A stretch of 64,000 nt of DNA from Escherichia phage ECO07P1. The position numbers and the translations under genes were made by a program. A model generated the notes under the pieces. It was given only the letters and a program-made list of their open reading frames with translations. It ran no database searches and was not told the DNA's origin. Shown here piece after piece: positions 58,463-64,000 of the stretch (positions are counted from its first letter, which is position 1; each line of letters starts with the position of its first letter). The DNA lies in sequence record OP172784; one strand, given 5' to 3'.

Positions 58463-59159
<697 letters not shown>

Positions 59160-59171
59160 TTTCACAAAGTT

Positions 59172-59210
59172 GTTTACACGGGGTTTTAGTTGTGATACTA
59201 TTACCCTATC
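59172..59210 (+). promoter_or_regulatory. early promoter cassette upstream of first IP-like gene
   Basis: GTTTAC 59172-59177, TGa-TACTAT at 59196-59201, followed by ACCCTATC. Confidence 0.6.
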
Positions 59211-59237
59211 AAAACAAATGAGTGATTGGAGAATAAA

Positions 59238-59510
59238 ATGAAAACATTTAAAGAATTTATCAATGAAGCTGCTTTTAACGAAAAAGTAAAAATTAGCAAA
59301 GCTGTCAAGACTATGATTGATAACATCAATTACCTATATGGTATTGATTTAACTGACTATGTAACAGTTGGTAACAAACGTAACTATTTCGTGTTTGACA
59401 TCTCTGAACTTGACCAGAATCAAATTAACAACATTGAGCGTTTTGCTAATGATAAGGGTCTTCGTCATGAGTCAGCGGGTTATAAAAAATACGCAATTTA
59501 TTTAAAATGA
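59238..59510 (+). CDS. internal-protein-like small protein with N-terminal capsid targeting sequence
   Basis: Starts MKTFKEFINE|AA.., matching the T4 IP capsid-targeting sequence/gp21 cleavage context (MKTYQEFIAE|A recalled); preceded by early promoter cassette and RBS GGAGAATAAAATG. Confidence 0.6.
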   Translation: MKTFKEFINEAAFNEKVKISKAVKTMIDNINYLYGIDLTDYVTVGNKRNYFVFDISELDQNQINNIERFANDKGLRHESAGYKKYAIYLK

Positions 59511-59545
59511 GTTTACTTTTAAATAGGGTTGTGGTACTATTATCT
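59511..59545 (+). promoter_or_regulatory. early promoter cassette upstream of second IP-like gene
   Basis: GTTTAC 59511-59516, TGg-TACTAT extended -10. Confidence 0.55.
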
Positions 59546-59570
59546 CATCAAAATTAATTAGGAAAATAAA

Positions 59571-59879
59571 ATGAAAACATTTAAAGAATTTATCAATGAA
59601 GCGGCTGCACCAAAGACATTCATTATTTATACTCAAGCGGGTCTTGATGATGAGTATGCGGAAGCAATTCTGAGGTCACTTGCTAAGAACGGTGTTGAAG
59701 TAATTGCTTCGGACTTTAAGAAAGGGGCTTCCGAGATGTTTATTTCTATAACTAAAGGATCTAAAGCTAAAATCAAATCATCATTCGGTGTTGCTCGTAC
59801 CGATCAAATCGACAATCATGACTTTAAACAAACTGGTGCTAAACGACAGAATACAATTGCATCACGCGGAATAAAATAG
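59571..59879 (+). CDS. internal-protein-like small protein with capsid targeting sequence
   Basis: Starts MKTFKEFINE|AAAPK..; own early promoter cassette. Confidence 0.6.
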   Translation: MKTFKEFINEAAAPKTFIIYTQAGLDDEYAEAILRSLAKNGVEVIASDFKKGASEMFISITKGSKAKIKSSFGVARTDQIDNHDFKQTGAKRQNTIASRGIK

Positions 59880-59891
59880 TTTATAAAAACC

Positions 59892-59930
59892 GTTTACTTT
59901 TAGATAGGGTAGTGATACTATTACCCTATC
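59892..59930 (+). promoter_or_regulatory. early promoter cassette with flanking inverted repeat (promoter-early-stem-loop-like)
   Basis: GTTTAC 59892-59897; arms GATAGGGTA and TACCCTATC flank the -10 GTGATACTAT. Confidence 0.6.
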
Positions 59931-59949
59931 AACTACTGAGGAGAATAAA

Positions 59950-60174
59950 ATGAAAACATGTAAAAAATTTATTGTAGAAGCTAAAAGACACGAAGACGAA
60001 CTGCCTTTTGTTTCAAAAACCTTTGATGGAACATTGGCTGATTTTAAAAAAATTCCTAATGATAAACTTGCTAAATTGGTTGGTTCTATTAGTGAAAAAG
60101 ATGGCAAGGTCACATTTTCTGCTCAAGGCGTTGCCAATCTCAAGAAACTTTTGAAAGCCGCTGGTGTTGAATAA
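59950..60174 (+). CDS. internal-protein-like small protein with degenerate capsid targeting sequence
   Basis: Starts MKTCKKFIVE|AK..; own early promoter cassette and RBS GAGGAGAATAAAATG. Confidence 0.5.
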   Translation: MKTCKKFIVEAKRHEDELPFVSKTFDGTLADFKKIPNDKLAKLVGSISEKDGKVTFSAQGVANLKKLLKAAGVE

Positions 60175-60177
60175 ATT

Positions 60178-60216
60178 GTTTACATAGGGTTTTAGTTGTG
60201 ATACTATTACCCTATC
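60178..60216 (+). promoter_or_regulatory. early promoter cassette with flanking inverted repeat
   Basis: GTTTAC 60178-60183; arms ATAGGGT and ACCCTAT; identical leader ACCCTATCAACTACTGAGGAGAATAAAATG as at 59920-59952. Confidence 0.6.
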
Positions 60217-60235
60217 AACTACTGAGGAGAATAAA

Positions 60236-60418
60236 ATGAAACGTTGTGAATTAATTCGAAATGTTGCTATTGCAATTTCTGCTTCTGCTTTTAGTTTTTC
60301 AATGTTTGTTGGATTTATATGCGGATTATTGACTACAGCAGAAAATGTTTTTTCACTTGTAGTAGCATTTTTAATTGGTTTAATTGCTATCGTTATGGAT
60401 AAAATTTCTAAAGGTTAA
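60236..60418 (+). CDS. small membrane protein (two predicted hydrophobic helices)
   Basis: 60 aa; hydrophobic stretches AIAISASAFSFSMFVGFICGLL and VFSLVVAFLIGLIAIV; own early promoter cassette. Confidence 0.45.
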   Translation: MKRCELIRNVAIAISASAFSFSMFVGFICGLLTTAENVFSLVVAFLIGLIAIVMDKISKG

Positions 60419-60420
60419 TA

Positions 60421-60708
60421 ATGATTCTTTATGCGAAAGTATCGTCCGTTGAAAATGGATATAAATATGATCAAGATGCGGCTAAAGCCTTGATTGATGA
60501 TTATGGCATTTTAACATGTTTTGAAGTTGAAAAGGTTTACATTGACCGTTCATCTTCTCAAGTTAAATTAGTAAAGGAAGACCGTAAATTTAATACAGTA
60601 AATTTTGATTTCTTTATTGAAACAGAAAAAGGTCCTCTTGAATATGATATTTTCAAGAATCCTTTGGGTCTTGAATGCATCGTAAACATGTATTATCATA
60701 AATGGTAA
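60421..60708 (+). CDS. hypothetical protein (95 aa)
   Basis: ORF start overlaps previous stop (TAATAATG). Confidence 0.45.
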   Translation: MILYAKVSSVENGYKYDQDAAKALIDDYGILTCFEVEKVYIDRSSSQVKLVKEDRKFNTVNFDFFIETEKGPLEYDIFKNPLGLECIVNMYYHKW

Positions 60709-60710
60709 AT

Positions 60711-60735
60711 ATGCTTTAAGAATTATTTGTTATTA
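60711..60735 (+). promoter_or_regulatory. MotA-dependent middle promoter upstream of tRNA cluster
   Basis: Same ATGCTTTAAGAATTATTTGTTATTATTAA block as at 1077-1107. Confidence 0.5.
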
Positions 60736-60805
60736 TTAACTCATATCACACTGATTAATACCCTCTATCATCAAGGGTTCTTGCTTGAGAGCCTTTGTTA
60801 ATAAT

Positions 60806-60878
60806 TGGGAATTAGCCAAGTTGGTAAGGCACTGGATTTTGATTCCAGGATGCAAAGGTTCGAGTCCTTTATTCCCAG
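60806..60878 (+). tRNA. tRNA-Gln (anticodon UUG)
   Basis: Hand-folded cloverleaf: acceptor TGGGAAT/ATTCCCA, anticodon stem CTGGA/TCCAG with loop TTTTGAT, T-arm AAAGG-TTCGAGT-CCTTT. Confidence 0.8.
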
Positions 60879-60879
60879 C

Positions 60880-60966
60880 GCGAGAATGGTCAAATTGGTA
60901 AAGGCACAGCACTTAAAATGCTGCGGAATGATTTCCTTGTGGGTTCGAGTCCCACTTCTCGCACCA
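60880..60966 (+). tRNA. tRNA-Leu (anticodon UAA), class II with long variable arm
   Basis: Acceptor GCGAGAA/TTCTCGC, anticodon loop CTTAAAA, long variable arm, T-loop TTCGAGT, 3' CCA encoded. Confidence 0.8.
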
Positions 60967-60971
60967 AATTT

Positions 60972-61045
<74 letters not shown>

Positions 61046-61055
61046 ATTTAATTTA

Positions 61056-61130
61056 CTCCGTGTAGCTCAGTTTGGTAGAGCGTCTGCTTTGGGAGCAGAA
61101 TGTCGCAGGTTCAAATCCTGCCGCGGAGAC
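61056..61130 (+). tRNA. tRNA-Pro (anticodon UGG)
   Basis: Acceptor CTCCGTG/CGCGGAG, anticodon stem TCTGC/GCAGA with loop TTTGGGA, T-loop TTCAAAT. Confidence 0.8.
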
Positions 61131-61131
61131 T

Positions 61132-61221
61132 GGAGGCGTGGCAGAGTGGTTTAATGCACCGGTCTTGAAAACCGGCAGTCGCTCCGGCGACTCATAGGTT
61201 CAAATCCTATCGCCTCCGCCA
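61132..61221 (+). tRNA. tRNA-Ser (anticodon UGA), class II
   Basis: Acceptor GGAGGCG/CGCCTCC, anticodon stem CCGGT/ACCGG with loop CTTGAAA, long variable arm, CCA encoded. Confidence 0.8.
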
Positions 61222-61226
61222 GTTTT

Positions 61227-61302
61227 GCTGATTTAGCTTAGTAGGTAGAGCAACTCACTTGTAATGAGAAGGTCGGCGGTTCGATTCCGTCAATCAGCAC
61301 CA
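61227..61302 (+). tRNA. tRNA-Thr (anticodon UGU)
   Basis: Acceptor GCTGATT/AATCAGC, anticodon loop CTTGTAA, T-loop TTCGATT, CCA encoded. Confidence 0.8.
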
Positions 61303-61303
61303 A

Positions 61304-61378
61304 GGCCCTGTAGCTGGAAGGTTCAAGCAAGCGACTCATAATCGCCAGATGGTGGTTCAATTCCACCCAGGGCCACCA
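61304..61378 (+). tRNA. tRNA with CAU anticodon (Ile via lysidine modification, or Met)
   Basis: Acceptor GGCCCTG/CAGGGCC, anticodon loop CTCATAA, T-loop TTCAATT, CCA encoded; the T4 equivalent is recalled as annotated Ile. Confidence 0.75.
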
Positions 61379-61391
61379 AATTAAGAATTAA

Positions 61392-61478
61392 GGGGAGTTA
61401 TCCCGTAGAGGTAGCGGTGTGGACTGTAAATCCATTGTCATTGCGACTCGGGTGGTTCGACTCCATCACTCCCCACCA
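61392..61478 (+). tRNA. tRNA-Tyr (anticodon GUA), class II
   Basis: Acceptor GGGGAGT/ACTCCCC, anticodon stem GTGGA/TCCAT with loop CTGTAAA, 15-nt variable arm as expected for bacterial-type tRNA-Tyr, T-loop TTCGACT, CCA encoded. Confidence 0.7.
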
Positions 61479-61482
61479 ATTT

Positions 61483-61557
61483 GGATGTGTAGCTCAATGG
61501 CAGAGCGATCGCCTGTTAAGCGATTGGTTATAGGTTCGAATCCTATCACGTCCGCCA
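61483..61557 (+). tRNA. tRNA-Asn (anticodon GUU)
   Basis: Acceptor GGATGTG/CACGTCC (one G-U), anticodon stem ATCGC/GCGAT with loop CTGTTAA, T-loop TTCGAAT, CCA encoded. Confidence 0.7.
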
Positions 61558-61561
61558 AATC

Positions 61562-61637
61562 CGAGGCATAGCTCAGAAGGAAGAGCAAGGACCTTCTAAG
61601 TCCTAGGTCGTAGGTTCGATCCCTACTGCCTCGACCA
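61562..61637 (+). tRNA. tRNA-Arg (anticodon UCU)
   Basis: Acceptor CGAGGCA/TGCCTCG, anticodon stem AGGAC/GTCCT with loop CTTCTAA, T-loop TTCGATC, CCA encoded. Confidence 0.8.
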
Positions 61638-61653
61638 ATTAAGTGAGGAAAAT

Positions 61654-62004
61654 ATGAAAGGTAATGTTTATTTAGTAGTTCATGATTTAACATTCTATTT
61701 TAATCATAATGACACTGTTATTTCTGAACGCGTAATTAATTTGCTTTATCAGCACGCAGATTATGTTTATGTCGAAAACGAATACGGTCATTGGCAATTT
61801 CTCAAAAATCGTTCATTTGGTTTAGATGGTTACGAATACTTTGAACGTAAAGACCTTTTAGATAAAATTCCATTATCTACACAATATCAAAATCACAAGT
61901 CTTTACATAAATGCCGTCCAATTCGAAATGTTGAATCTGCGTATGAAGCAATTGATTTGTGGCGTAAACGCCGTGAACAGATTGATGCTTTAAAAGAATA
62001 TTAA
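61654..62004 (+). CDS. hypothetical protein (116 aa)
   Basis: ORF with RBS GAGGAAAATATG directly after tRNA-Arg. Confidence 0.45.
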   Translation: MKGNVYLVVHDLTFYFNHNDTVISERVINLLYQHADYVYVENEYGHWQFLKNRSFGLDGYEYFERKDLLDKIPLSTQYQNHKSLHKCRPIRNVESAYEAIDLWRKRREQIDALKEY

Positions 62005-62345
62005 GAAACCGGGTCGCTACCGGTAAGTCGTCGGACTGATGTTCCCTGGGTAAGGACTGGCATTAACAAATCTTTACGATTTGTTAATGTCCCCTTACAT
62101 CACAGCAGAAACGGCGCACCGAATTATCGATTCGAGGAAATATCTTTGCCGTAAGCCGAGTAGCGTTTTTGACGGAACGTTCGGATATGGTCGAGATATG
62201 GCCTTTTAAAAATATTAAGTAGCGTCAACTGCTTAATAACCGGGTTCGAATCCCGGCGTTTCGTACAAACACTTGCCTTAGCAGGTGGAACCCCGACAAG
62301 GTTGCCGCAAGGCTTAGCCCCGACCGAAAGGTTGGGGCTTTTTAG
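62005..62345 (+). ncRNA. putative structured stable RNA(s) / tRNA-like element, ending in an intrinsic terminator
   Basis: No ORF of 60 aa or more; perfect 11-bp hairpin ATTAACAAATC-TTTAC-GATTTGTTAAT (about 62057-62083); tRNA-like T-arm CCGGG-TTCGAAT-CCCGG with possible acceptor pairing CGGAACG/CGTTTCG; terminator AGCCCCGACC-GAAA-GGTTGGGGCT-TTTTT at 62316-62345. Confidence 0.3.
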
Positions 62346-62433
62346 TTTGAATCACTCGGATAACGCTGTTACGGATAATAACAAAGTAATAAATAATTAA
62401 TAACCAACCGATAGATTATTTCAAGGATTTTAA

Positions 62434-62997
62434 ATGAAAACTTATGCCGAATTTTTAACCGAAGCAGCAAAATTACCATCTGAAGCAGAACTTACTAAAG
62501 TATTCTTCCAATTGGACCCAAAAGACCGTGGCGATTTTCTTAAGTGGAAAGCTAAAGCTATTGAAATGTATAACATTGATAATAGTTCTTTTACGATGAG
62601 TCAAGAAAATAAATTCAATAAAGCATTTTTCAAAATTTCTAAGAAACTGGCATCTGGCGCTCAGGTTCCTAAATCTGCCTTAGCTACTCCTGAACGTGCG
62701 CCTGTTAAAATTTCTAAGAATATGTTCGACACTAAAAAATACGTTAATGCTTTGAATAAAGCTCTTGATGCATTGGATGATGCAAAGAAGGCAGCCCGTG
62801 ATCTTCAAGACGTGTACATCGATTTTGATCGTAAAACTAAAGGTTCTATTTCAAATAGCGAACGCAATAGTGTAAGCGTTTATTCTGATAGCCTTGACGT
62901 TCTTGGCGATGCGTATACTGAAATTAAAAATCGTATTAACACCGCATCTAAACTAAAAGCTGCCGCAGAAGCTATAATAGCTAAACTAGATAAATAA
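62434..62997 (+). CDS. internal-protein-like protein with capsid targeting sequence (IPIII-sized)
   Basis: 187 aa starting MKTYAEFLTE|AAK.., very close to the recalled T4 IP capsid-targeting sequence; followed by terminator 63005-63030. Confidence 0.6.
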   Translation: MKTYAEFLTEAAKLPSEAELTKVFFQLDPKDRGDFLKWKAKAIEMYNIDNSSFTMSQENKFNKAFFKISKKLASGAQVPKSALATPERAPVKISKNMFDTKKYVNALNKALDALDDAKKAARDLQDVYIDFDRKTKGSISNSERNSVSVYSDSLDVLGDAYTEIKNRINTASKLKAAAEAIIAKLDK

Positions 62998-63004
62998 TTT
63001 TAAA

Positions 63005-63030
63005 TCCCTATCTAAATGATAGGGCTTTTT
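63005..63030 (+). terminator. intrinsic terminator after IP-like gene
   Basis: CCCTATC-TAAAT-GATAGGG followed by CTTTTT. Confidence 0.6.
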
Positions 63031-63164
63031 GGTATCTAGGCCTTTCTGGACCTCTCTAAGAATCATTTAGTTTCTACCCTTTATAATATATTATCCTATC
63101 CTTTAATTGCCCCTCCCTGTCCTAGAATTCCCTAAAACTTTTTAAAAAATTTTTTCACAAAACT

Positions 63165-63200
63165 GTTTACATCCCCGTTCTTCCATGGTACTATACAACT
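63165..63200 (+). promoter_or_regulatory. early promoter with A/T-rich upstream element
   Basis: TTTTTAAAAAATTTTTT tract, GTTTAC 63165-63170, GG-TACTAT -10, leader TATCAACTACTGA. Confidence 0.55.
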
Positions 63201-63238
63201 ATCAACTACTGATACAGAAAAACAACTTGGAGAATGAA

Positions 63239-63502
63239 ATGGATAATTACGGCGAACTGTTCAACTTCTTTATGAAATGCGTTTCAGAAGATTTCGGTCG
63301 TACAGTGAATGATATTAAAGTCATCGGTCCTGACCATCCGATGTTTGAAACTTACGCAGTAATGGGTAATGAAGACGGTCAGTGGTATACTGTAAAAGTT
63401 GTGATTAATATGTTCACTGCTGAAGGTTATGTTAAACTGTCTTCTAAAGTTTACCACGATAACGATGAAATCGCAGAAGAATATTTCAATAATATGAAAT
63501 AA
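63239..63502 (+). CDS. hypothetical early protein (87 aa from Met at MDNYGELF)
   Basis: RBS GGAGAATGAAATG; early promoter cassette at 63165-63192; track ORF start at 63185 lies inside the promoter and is unlikely. Confidence 0.45.
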   Translation: MDNYGELFNFFMKCVSEDFGRTVNDIKVIGPDHPMFETYAVMGNEDGQWYTVKVVINMFTAEGYVKLSSKVYHDNDEIAEEYFNNMK

Positions 63503-63570
63503 GTGTGTACAAACACCAAGGATGGTGTTATTATAGACTTATCAAAACAATCACAGAAGCGGAGAAATAA

Positions 63571-63747
63571 ATGACTACTTTAACTATTTGGTTTGACGAA
63601 AATGAAGAAACATACTGTGTGAACATTGATGAAAGTCCAATGCCAGAATTTGAATCTTCAGATAAAAACTCGGTTGTATCTTGGGCTGAAGGTTATAAAG
63701 CAGCAAAAGGCGATGTTGAAATAGTTTACAAACTATCCGGAGTATAA
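63571..63747 (+). CDS. hypothetical small protein (58 aa)
   Basis: ORF MTTLTIWFDENEETYCVNID.. with RBS GCGGAGAAATAAATG; below the track cutoff. Confidence 0.35.
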   Translation: MTTLTIWFDENEETYCVNIDESPMPEFESSDKNSVVSWAEGYKAAKGDVEIVYKLSGV

Positions 63748-63791
63748 TACTCTCATGGATTTTAAATCTTAATTAACCTAAGGAAATACTA

Positions 63792-64000
63792 TGAACACAC
63801 TGAAGAAAATTGTTGATTTTATTCGCACTAAACTTGGTTCTGCAATGGCTAAAAATCTATCTGTTGAAGAACAGTATACTGCTGCAGCAGCAAAACTGCT
63901 TGATAAAATTAAAGACCTAAAAACTGCTTCTGTTAAATCTATTAATGAAGAAAAACGTATTCGTGAACTTATTGTTGAAAAGAATAAACAGGCTGAATCA
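63792..64000 (+). CDS. hypothetical protein, 3'-truncated at window edge
   Basis: [19 protein letters not shown].. with RBS AAGGAAATACTATG; runs off the window end. Confidence 0.35.

Follow-up and report, generated by a model that had tools for sequence, protein, structure and literature searches.

The window, by which we mean the whole stretch of DNA that was analysed, comprises 64,000 nucleotides of Escherichia phage ECO07P1 (sequence record OP172784; one strand, 5' to 3'), and nucleotide similarity places this phage among the T4-like members of Tequatrovirus. Some 900 Tequatrovirus/Mosigvirus records matched, Tequatrovirus genomes aligning with the region at 94-98% identity, with Salmonella phage F13076 as the top match for positions 58700-60830 (98.5%) and Escherichia phage G4498 covering 59100-63300 at 94%. 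The genes follow the order gp2, gp3, gp1, 57A, 57B, three small ORFs, trna.4 and trna.2, after which come ten tRNAs, an ORF, the rnaD/rnaC region, an IPIII-like ORF and an e.8-like ORF. The three small ORFs match internal head or virion protein families and adjoin 57B as in T4, and their N-termini (MKTFKEFINEAA in genes A and B, MKTCKKFIVEAK in gene C) form a putative capsid-targeting leader of approximately 11 residues. As three tandem internal-protein (IP) genes are found where T4 has only ipI, we assign 59100-60250 to the hyperplastic internal-protein ("IP1") locus that extends from 57B to the tRNA genes. As at a T-even IP locus, its ORFs adjoin 57B, share a conserved leader and are framed by conserved blocks that carry expression signals.

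59238-59510, + strand: internal-protein gene A, 90 aa, starting with MKTFKEFINEAA; phrog_7673 internal head protein, E 3.6e-54
59571-59879, + strand: internal-protein gene B, 102 aa, Ip7-like; phrog_2667
59950-60174, + strand: internal-protein gene C, 74 aa; phrog_8765 internal virion protein

Homologous blocks with transcription and translation signals reportedly flank and shuffle the IP genes at T-even loci. As reportedly described by Repoila et al. (1994, EMBO J 13:4181), the T-even IP locus resembles the present one in its position next to 57B, its conserved 11-residue N-terminal leader and its block-mediated shuffling, and nothing substantive in that account differs from the window, which would represent another allele with three IP genes (phrog_7673, phrog_2667 and phrog_8765) as compared with ipI only in T4.

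On the + strand between 59100 and 60250, one regulatory unit is present in four tandem copies (cassettes P1 to P4), each of which precedes one small gene. The 5' part of the unit consists of an AT-rich block with the stop codon of the preceding ORF, a GTTTAC -35 element and a 17-bp spacer, and the 3' part consists of TGn, the -10 element TACTAT, a conserved CC(C/T)(T/C)ATCAA and a leader of 15-25 nt that carries a Shine-Dalgarno (SD) sequence and leads to the ATG. The conserved start region of the cassettes is CCTATCAA. In the internal-protein genes the first ~11 codons are a conserved stretch that probably encodes the capsid-targeting signal, and in P1 these codons follow the leader and ATG.

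59154-59273, + strand: cassette P1, with upstream block TTTCACAAAGTT, -35 GTTTACA at 59172-59178, -10 TACTAT at 59196-59201 and ATG at 59238
59180-59184 and 59203-59207, + strand: P1 stem, GGGGT/ACCCT, weakened; RNA fold -11.5 kcal/mol, z -2.5
59503-59606, + strand: cassette P2, with GTTTAC at 59511 and -10 TACTAT at 59535-59540; stem broken, -1.9 kcal/mol, z +0.7
59872-59982, + strand: cassette P3, with -35 GTTTACT at 59892-59898, -10 TACTAT at 59916-59921, leader and ATG at 59950
59903-59911 and 59922-59930, + strand: P3 arms, GATAGGGTA/TACCCTATC, 9 bp each; -16.4 kcal/mol, z -4.8
60173-60244, + strand: cassette P4, the trna.4 promoter, with -35 GTTTACA at 60178-60184, -10 at 60202-60207 and ATG at 60236
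60184-60190 and 60209-60215, + strand: P4 arms, ATAGGGT/ACCCTAT, with an 18-nt loop; -13.7 kcal/mol, z -4.1

A search of the window for GTTTAC-N(15-18)-TANNAT returned seven matches, at 59172, 59511, 59892, 60178, 63165, 2289 and 2681, against 1.06 expected. The stricter GTTTAC-N17-TACTAT with TGn is found at 59172, 59511, 59892 and 60178, which identifies all four cassettes as early promoters. The upstream stop codons (59157-59159, 59508-59510, 59877-59879 and 60172-60174) lie 1-13 nt ahead of the -35, and GGAG or GGAA followed by an ATG is located 30-37 nt downstream of the -10, reproducing the stop, SD and start layout of the PeSL cassettes that are discussed below. As far as the work of Liebig and Ruger (1989) is represented in PMC2988021, T4 early promoters are composed of UP, -35 GTTTAC, TGn and -10 elements, and all four cassettes match this arrangement, including TGn and the CTATCAA start region. 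The cassettes at 59172 and 59511 are two further members of the family, upstream of the pair at 59892 and 60178 and absent from the original prediction.

That prediction had inverted repeats flanking the -10 in the 59892 and 60178 cassettes, and these are indeed present, with arms at 59903-59930 and 60184-60215. The loop of P3 is 10 nt long (GTGATACTAT) and holds both TGn and the -10. The 5' arm of P4 abuts the -35 and that of P3 lies within the spacer, while both 3' arms come after the -10. ATAGGG-N(3-25)-CCCTAT occurs at just two sites in the 64 kb, those of P3 and P4, against 0.02 expected, and none of 100 shuffles reached two. A stable stem-loop is thus found in P3 and P4, a weaker one in P1 and none in P2, which is a chimera between an ATAGGG-type 5' half and a T4 ipI-type 3' half (TATCTCATCAAAATTAATTAGG). 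T4 itself carries the same promoter as P4, with its ATAGGGT/ACCCTAT palindrome, ahead of trna.4. An Rfam search over 58500-64000 (E up to 0.1) gave nothing at the hairpins and returned only tRNAs and sub-threshold noise.

The cassettes form direct repeats of about 44-120 bp, and P3 and P4 contain the two copies of a perfect one.

59912-59955, + strand: left copy of the 44-bp perfect direct repeat, comprising the extended -10, 3' arm, leader, SD and ATGAAA
60198-60241, + strand: right copy of the 44-bp perfect direct repeat, identical to 59912-59955

The identical leader that had been predicted for these two cassettes, ACCCTATCAACTACTGAGGAGAATAAAATG, is found at 59923-59952 and 60209-60238 and turns out to be part of the 44-bp repeat. 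As the cassettes are direct repeats spaced 286-381 bp apart, the efficient homologous recombination of the phage removes, adds and exchanges the genes that lie between them, and reassorts the promoter halves.

We compared the window with the same locus from 18 other phages by BLAST against each. IP gene content between 57B and trna.4 varies in nearly every relative among the 18, in agreement with the original proposal that the repeated units bound variable cargo ORFs.

T4: ipI
ime09: Ip5
RB7: Ip5 and ipI
GiZh, BCPShso_001, VIPECOOM03 and BW-1: Ip5 and Ip6
ECO07P2 and SQ17: genes A and B
The window, F13076 and G4498: genes A, B and C
mogra, RB69, IME281 and CC31: other sets

Homology from 57B passes through P1 and ends at 59257-59273, which is the end of the capsid-targeting codons, in T4, ime09, RB7, GiZh, BCPShso_001, VIPECOOM03, ESh33, PaulHMueller and mogra. 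The points at which it restarts all lie in P4: position 60173 is 5 nt ahead of the -35, 60195 marks the border of the extended -10, and 60226 belongs to the SD. The block 59569-59955, which contains ip7 and the downstream promoter, has 86% identity with Enterobacter phage CC31. Gene C, a 286-bp unit, is missing in ECO07P2 and SQ17, where homology extends to 59955 and restarts at 60195. The junction in both phages is one copy of the 44-bp repeat and leaves a single hybrid promoter with the P3 5' half fused to trna.4, matching the prediction for a crossover between the repeats or for integration of a 286-bp circle. All of these junctions (59257-59273, 59569, 59955, 60173, 60195 and 60226) lie within cassettes, the location that is characteristic of PeSLs.

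When 15 loci were each compared with all the others, 144 of the 259 block ends fell within -45 to +85 of a -10, the cassettes making up 31% of the interval, a figure that is descriptive only and for which a binomial p-value is not meaningful because the pairwise comparisons share ancestry. The block ends cluster near -28, -5, +17/+25, +40 and +57 to +78 relative to the -10, positions that locate crossovers imprecisely, given that homology would be expected to break off at the borders of conserved functional elements as well. The expectation that breakpoints between relatives coincide with the repeats was borne out for the IP-gene junctions inside the cassettes, but not for two indels away from them, namely the loss of trna.3, joined at 60409-60424 via a 13-bp overlap, and the insertion of a 516-bp ORF at 60680-60700 in several phages. 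Altogether, the comparison of relatives establishes, at the level of sequence, that recombination takes place at the cassettes, and it indicates that internal-protein genes are swapped, lost and gained with junctions in the promoter-leader-signal repeats. The window provides a clean natural example, in which an IP gene lies between 44-bp perfect repeats and is missing, exactly at those repeats, from two relatives. Internal proteins are injected and counteract restriction, with T4 Ip1-3 each blocking a different GmrSD-type enzyme (PMC12373910), and it is therefore through the cassette structure that T4-like phages alter their anti-defence repertoire and host range.

The promoters themselves are reassorted as well. 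Among all the cassettes listed, the 5' halves are of the types ..TGATGAGGTA, TTTTAGATAGGGTA and ATAGGGTTTTAG and the 3' halves of the types TACCTCATCAAAATTAATTAGG, TACCCTATCAACTACTGAGGAG and TACCCTATCAAAACAAA, and these are found in several combinations across phages, which shows that crossovers take place in the shared core GTGATACTATTA, i.e., in the hairpin loop, and are able to break the palindrome. Crossovers in the -10 core part the two arms and produce broken stems such as that at 59511; mismatched chimeras of this kind are P2 of the window, the second cassette of RB7 and the first cassette of BW-1. The recombining substrate is accordingly the entire direct repeat of ~45-120 bp, which extends from the upstream block through promoter and leader to the ATG and the capsid-targeting codons, and not the palindrome.

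PeSLs (promoter-early stem-loops), cassettes that combine an early promoter with a stem-loop and mediate modular shuffling, were described in RB49/phi1, where the commonest position of the stem-loop is between -35 and -10 or overlapping the -10 (Arbiol et al. 2010, PMC2839356). They were later extended to PST/T4 and nt-1/KVP40, with the PST/T4 consensus TTTACW-N17-TAYWAT (Comeau et al. 2014, PMC4122927), and the 2010 paper cites Repoila et al. 1994 to the effect, as far as that citation goes, that PeSL-like analogues rather than homologues exist at two T-even IP loci (PMC2839356). The window cassettes resemble PeSLs in uniting an AT-rich block, an early promoter, an embedded stem-loop, an SD and an ATG in one intergenic unit, in recurring between small, dispensable ORFs in a hyperplastic region, and in containing the junctions of indels and replacements; in addition, their promoters fit TTTACW-N17-TAYWAT. 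They differ from the RB49/phi1 elements, which have TTGACA/TATAAT promoters and GGGG..CCCC stems in place of GTTTAC/TACTAT and ATAGGGT/ACCCTAT and which thus form a separate family, and terminator activity and mini-circles have been demonstrated for the RB49/phi1 elements alone (PMC2839356). The PST elements differ in another respect, as the 2014 legend places an AGNA..TCNT stem-loop just upstream of the promoter, whereas the window stems enclose the -10 (PMC4122927). Judged by their sequence, the window cassettes fall under the broad definition of a PeSL, and the original description of PeSL-like promoter-plus-stem-loop units is apt for these T4-type early promoters, into which a stem-loop is built. 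The element is therefore one already known in kind, at an IP locus already described as prone to shuffling.

The present analysis makes a modest addition, namely numerical support for selection on hairpins around the -10 at about one third of T4 early promoters. A survey of 127 kb of T4 yielded 34 early-promoter-like sites. A perfect inverted repeat of at least 6 bp encloses the -10 at 13 of the 34, compared with 2.8 when upstream and downstream halves were re-paired among promoters and 3.6 after shuffling, and the corresponding count for repeats of at least 7 bp is 9 (controls 0.8 and 1.0, respectively); 0 of 2000 permutations attained the observed counts. The 13 stems are mutually different in sequence. 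The promoters concerned precede ipI, trna.4, e.8, e.7, ipIII, denV, motB, 30.8, 30.9, cd.3, frd.2 and rnh, and the thirteenth site lies inside gene 34. The published summary of the T4 consensus (PMC2988021) is without an inverted repeat around the -10, in contrast to these 13 of 34 sites, and the -10-enclosing hairpin is unmentioned for T-even phages in that promoter review and in the description of the PST/T4 PeSLs (PMC4122927).

The stems also covary. The T4 ipI stem (TGATGAGGTA/TACCTCATCA) has the same register as GATAGGGTA/TACCCTATC of the window, with two pairs changed on both sides, and G.U intermediates are present (GATGGGGTA, ATGGGGT, TATCTCATC and ACCTTAT). Orthologous promoters carry the following stems around the -10:

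SQ17 and RB69: AGGATGAT/ATCATCCT
CC31: AGGGCTAT/ATAGCCCT
RB69 and mogra: GATAGGACTA/TAGTCCTATC
IME281: AGGTCTATAG/CTATAGGCCT and GGGCT/AGCCC
JD18: GGGTTGTAGTA/TACTATAACCC

In two gapless alignments, a few rows of which were included because they fold in the register concerned, 90% of the cells are paired in the first (A1, 13 sequences; slid controls 32-63%) and 81% in the second (A2, 16 sequences; slid controls 32-52%), with 5 of 10 pairs (1/500 shuffles) and 5 of 8 pairs (0/500 shuffles), respectively, changed on both sides. A scan of IMG/VR with the trna.4 leader returned only four contigs, too few for large-scale covariation. The -10 inverted repeat is thus apparently a second, separately selected feature of approximately one third of T4 early promoters. 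As only two of the four cassettes have perfect stems and recombination breaks stems, selection on the hairpin would be weak or intermittent. Elsewhere in the window, two further early-type promoters carry such hairpins.

2681-2721, + strand: distant hairpin promoter, GGTACAGG/CCTGTACC around the -10; -16.1 kcal/mol, z -4.7; orthologue of the T4 promoter at 129917
63499-63542, + strand: early-type promoter TGTACA-N17-TATTAT (63506-63534) wholly in a hairpin; -17.1 kcal/mol, z -4.9

On balance, the locus is best explained, and we consider this explanation probable, by recombining T4-type early promoter cassettes at the IP1 locus that carry in addition a separately selected -10 hairpin, likely an attenuator or protector. 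We weighed against it the view that the palindromes as such are functionless and arise as a by-product of the early-promoter consensus and of the copying of promoters by duplication and recombination. The 3' arm does include the conserved CTATC start region, P3 and P4 have their whole 3' half in common as the 44-bp repeat, the stem is weakened in P1 and broken in P2, and several phages contain mismatched chimeras. Moreover, changes that look compensatory could stem from templated correction of quasi-palindromes, a type of mutation for which T4 provides classical examples. However, when promoters are permuted with the conserved positions held constant, stems of at least 7 bp are expected at 0.8 promoters, against the 9 observed, and at least 12 stem sequences with no relation to one another, in at least two registers, are all centred on the -10. 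Pairs changed on both sides outnumber those in shuffles, and the 5' arms of P3 and P4, which occupy different positions in the spacer, are both complementary to the same 3' arm. A mere by-product is for these reasons unlikely in our judgement.

The clustering of block ends at about -5 and at +17 to +25 of the -10, which correspond to the loop and 3'-arm boundaries, would suit a hairpin that acts in DNA, where a cruciform or single-strand hairpin starts recombination, for example as a target of endonuclease VII or gp46/47, and the palindrome itself drives shuffling. Yet the stems are short (7-9 bp), with loops of 10-18 nt, and fold as DNA at no more than -5.5 to -6.9 kcal/mol. Many of the junctions are found beyond the palindrome, at the SD/ATG and where the signal codons end, the stemless cassette P2 is a junction site as well, and the G.U-compatible variants point to sense RNA. 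Since T4 recombines at homologies of 6-10 bp without a special signal (PMC9391042), such a signal at the DNA level is possible and not needed, and we regard it as quite improbable that the palindrome drives the shuffling. A palindrome centred on the -10 also has the geometry of a classical operator, at which a dimeric DNA-binding protein would shut the promoter off, and the mechanism by which T4 early promoters are shut off is described as unresolved (PMC2988021). This reading was rejected as very improbable, because the arm sequences covary, being wholly different between promoters and phages with complementarity kept, because the distance between the arms ranges from 6 to 18 nt, and because the same 3' arm is used in two registers.

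Within the favoured explanation, that of recombining cassettes with a selected hairpin, standard -10/+1 spacing would place the transcription start of the cassette promoters within the 3' arm, on the A of CTATCAA, at about 59929 in P3 and 60215 in P4. The hairpin would therefore be absent from the promoter's own RNA and form only in read-through RNA or in DNA. Three observations favour a hairpin that acts as RNA. On the sense strand, most of the variants are compatible with G.U pairing. The sense folds are stronger than the antisense folds (-16.4/-13.7 vs -12.2/-11.9 kcal/mol for P3/P4), the mean over 53 related sequences being -11.9 for sense and -8.6 kcal/mol for antisense, a difference owed partly to the promoter consensus GTGATACTAT itself. 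Folds of P3 and P4 with DNA parameters are weak (-6.9 and -5.5 kcal/mol).

In read-through RNA the hairpin could serve as a compact attenuator or as a 3'-end-protecting hairpin without a U-tract, which would insulate neighbouring cassettes where there is no room for a separate terminator, as the promoters abut the upstream stop codons. An attenuating or 3'-end-protecting role appears most likely by analogy with the one RB49 stem-loop that Arbiol et al. (2010) tested when they proposed a terminator- or attenuator-type role (PMC2839356). Like intrinsic terminators, the promoter hairpins are stable as RNA and located where a gene ends, but they have longer loops and no T-run. As our terminator scan found no T-run after the hairpins at 59903-59930 or 60184-60215, intrinsic termination is doubtful; canonical intrinsic terminators were rejected as an identity for them, and the term "terminator" does not carry over to the promoter hairpins. 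A canonical terminator lies within 250 nt upstream of 1 of the 13 T4 hairpin promoters and of 8 of the 21 others, a difference in the expected direction that is not significant (Fisher p = 0.11), and a literature search found no published T4 3'-end mapping data.

It is tempting to speculate, with less than even confidence, that promoters with a -10-enclosing hairpin constitute a distinct T4-type early-promoter class, in which a sense-strand RNA element in read-through transcripts insulates or processes tandem single-gene cassettes and replaces a separate terminator. If so, promoter and insulator would be one overlapping module of ~45 nt, whose arms are continually broken and re-paired by recombination in the -10 core. 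The hairpin statistics make the attenuator/insulator idea directly testable.

Intrinsic terminators with a stem, a short loop and a T-run were found only at 62316-62339 and 63006-63024.

63006-63030, + strand: intrinsic terminator CCCTATC-TAAAT-GATAGGG (63006-63024) followed by CTTTTT, after the IPIII-like ORF at 62434-62997
63165-63194, + strand: early promoter of the GTTTAC family without a hairpin, 140 nt past the 63006 terminator; -1.8 kcal/mol, z 0

The original prediction linked the promoter palindromes to a terminator stem of the same motif at 63005-63024. The terminator is real, at 63006-63024, and its arms have a heptamer in common with those of the promoter hairpins in the reverse order, but the common heptamer may be coincidental. 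Among the relatives, this terminator occurs only in F13076 and G4498, both of which have the same IPIII-like ORF, and it resembles the rnaC terminator.

The two early promoter cassettes P3 (59892) and P4 (60178), each with a hairpin around its -10 region, have two spacer blocks in common, but in swapped order: TTTAG-ATAGGGT in P3 (59898-59911) versus ATAGGGT-TTTAG in P4 (60184-60197). As sequence, this swap suggests either a small duplication with a deletion or an out-of-register exchange between the cassettes. The leader that they share carries GAGGAG (59938-59943 and 60224-60229), in which the GGAG lies within the Shine-Dalgarno site. The T4 RegB endoribonuclease cleaves such GGAG sites in some early mRNAs (PMC2988021), and the leader GGAG is a candidate site of the RegB type.

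Downstream of P4, the window is without trna.3 (60409-60424), which T4, G4498 and ECO07P2 carry as a stretch of about 400 bp. About 13 bp where trna.4 stops and trna.2 starts belong to both of the homology blocks that flank the gap, so the loss of trna.3 looks like a microhomology deletion in which the promoter cassettes would not be involved. F13076 has the same arrangement as the window; in GiZh trna.3 is unannotated, yet about 380 bp are kept between trna.4 and trna.2. Also missing from the window is a 516-bp ORF found between trna.2 and tRNA-Gln in PaulHMueller, VIPECOOM03, ESh33, BW-1, SQ17 and RB69, and no early-promoter repeat was found at the junction of this indel (60680-60700).

Two further features were noted:

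60806-61637, ten tRNA genes (Gln, Leu, Gly, Pro, Ser, Thr, Met, Tyr, Asn, Arg)
62434-62997, an ORF of 187 aa, assigned to phrog_2280 (unknown function), whose leader (MKTYAEFLTEAAKL) is of the internal-protein type

The tRNA cluster lacks the segB homing endonuclease, whereas in T4 and in F13076, otherwise the closest relative, segB precedes tRNA-Arg and both tRNA-Tyr and tRNA-Asn are absent. This contrast in gene content makes the locus a mosaic, F13076-like on the left and G4498-like on the right. Sub-threshold Rfam matches to 'Plastid-ycf2 5UTR RNA' (61227-61635, minus strand), antisense to three of the tRNA genes, can almost certainly be dismissed as artefacts that tRNA-like sequence produces. 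The 187-aa ORF occupies the stretch from an rnaC-like terminator (62316-62339) to the one at 63006, no GTTTAC early promoter was found ahead of it, and T4 has only a spacer of about 285 bp at this position.

Three other promoters were noted, at least two of them with a hairpin:

63506-63534, promoter TGTACA-N17-TATTAT, wholly inside a hairpin at 63499-63542
2681-2721, early promoter far from the internal-protein cassettes, orthologue of T4 site 129917
2289-2335, early promoter, likewise distant, orthologue of T4 site 130309

The hairpin at 63499-63542 (-17.1 kcal/mol, z -4.9) combines an inner stem, AACACCA/TGGTGTT, with an outer stem, ATAAGT/ACTTAT, that includes the upstream stop codon. Around the -10 region of the 2681-2721 promoter an 8-bp stem is formed by GGTACAGG/CCTGTACC (-16.1 kcal/mol), and in the T4 orthologue of the 2289-2335 promoter (130309) the 3' arm overlaps the Shine-Dalgarno site. 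In the RefSeq record of T4 (NC_000866.4, around 70330, minus strand), the e.8 promoter hairpin (ATAGGCTNATG) has an ambiguous base, N, within its 5' arm; F13076 has a C at this position, giving a 10-bp stem.
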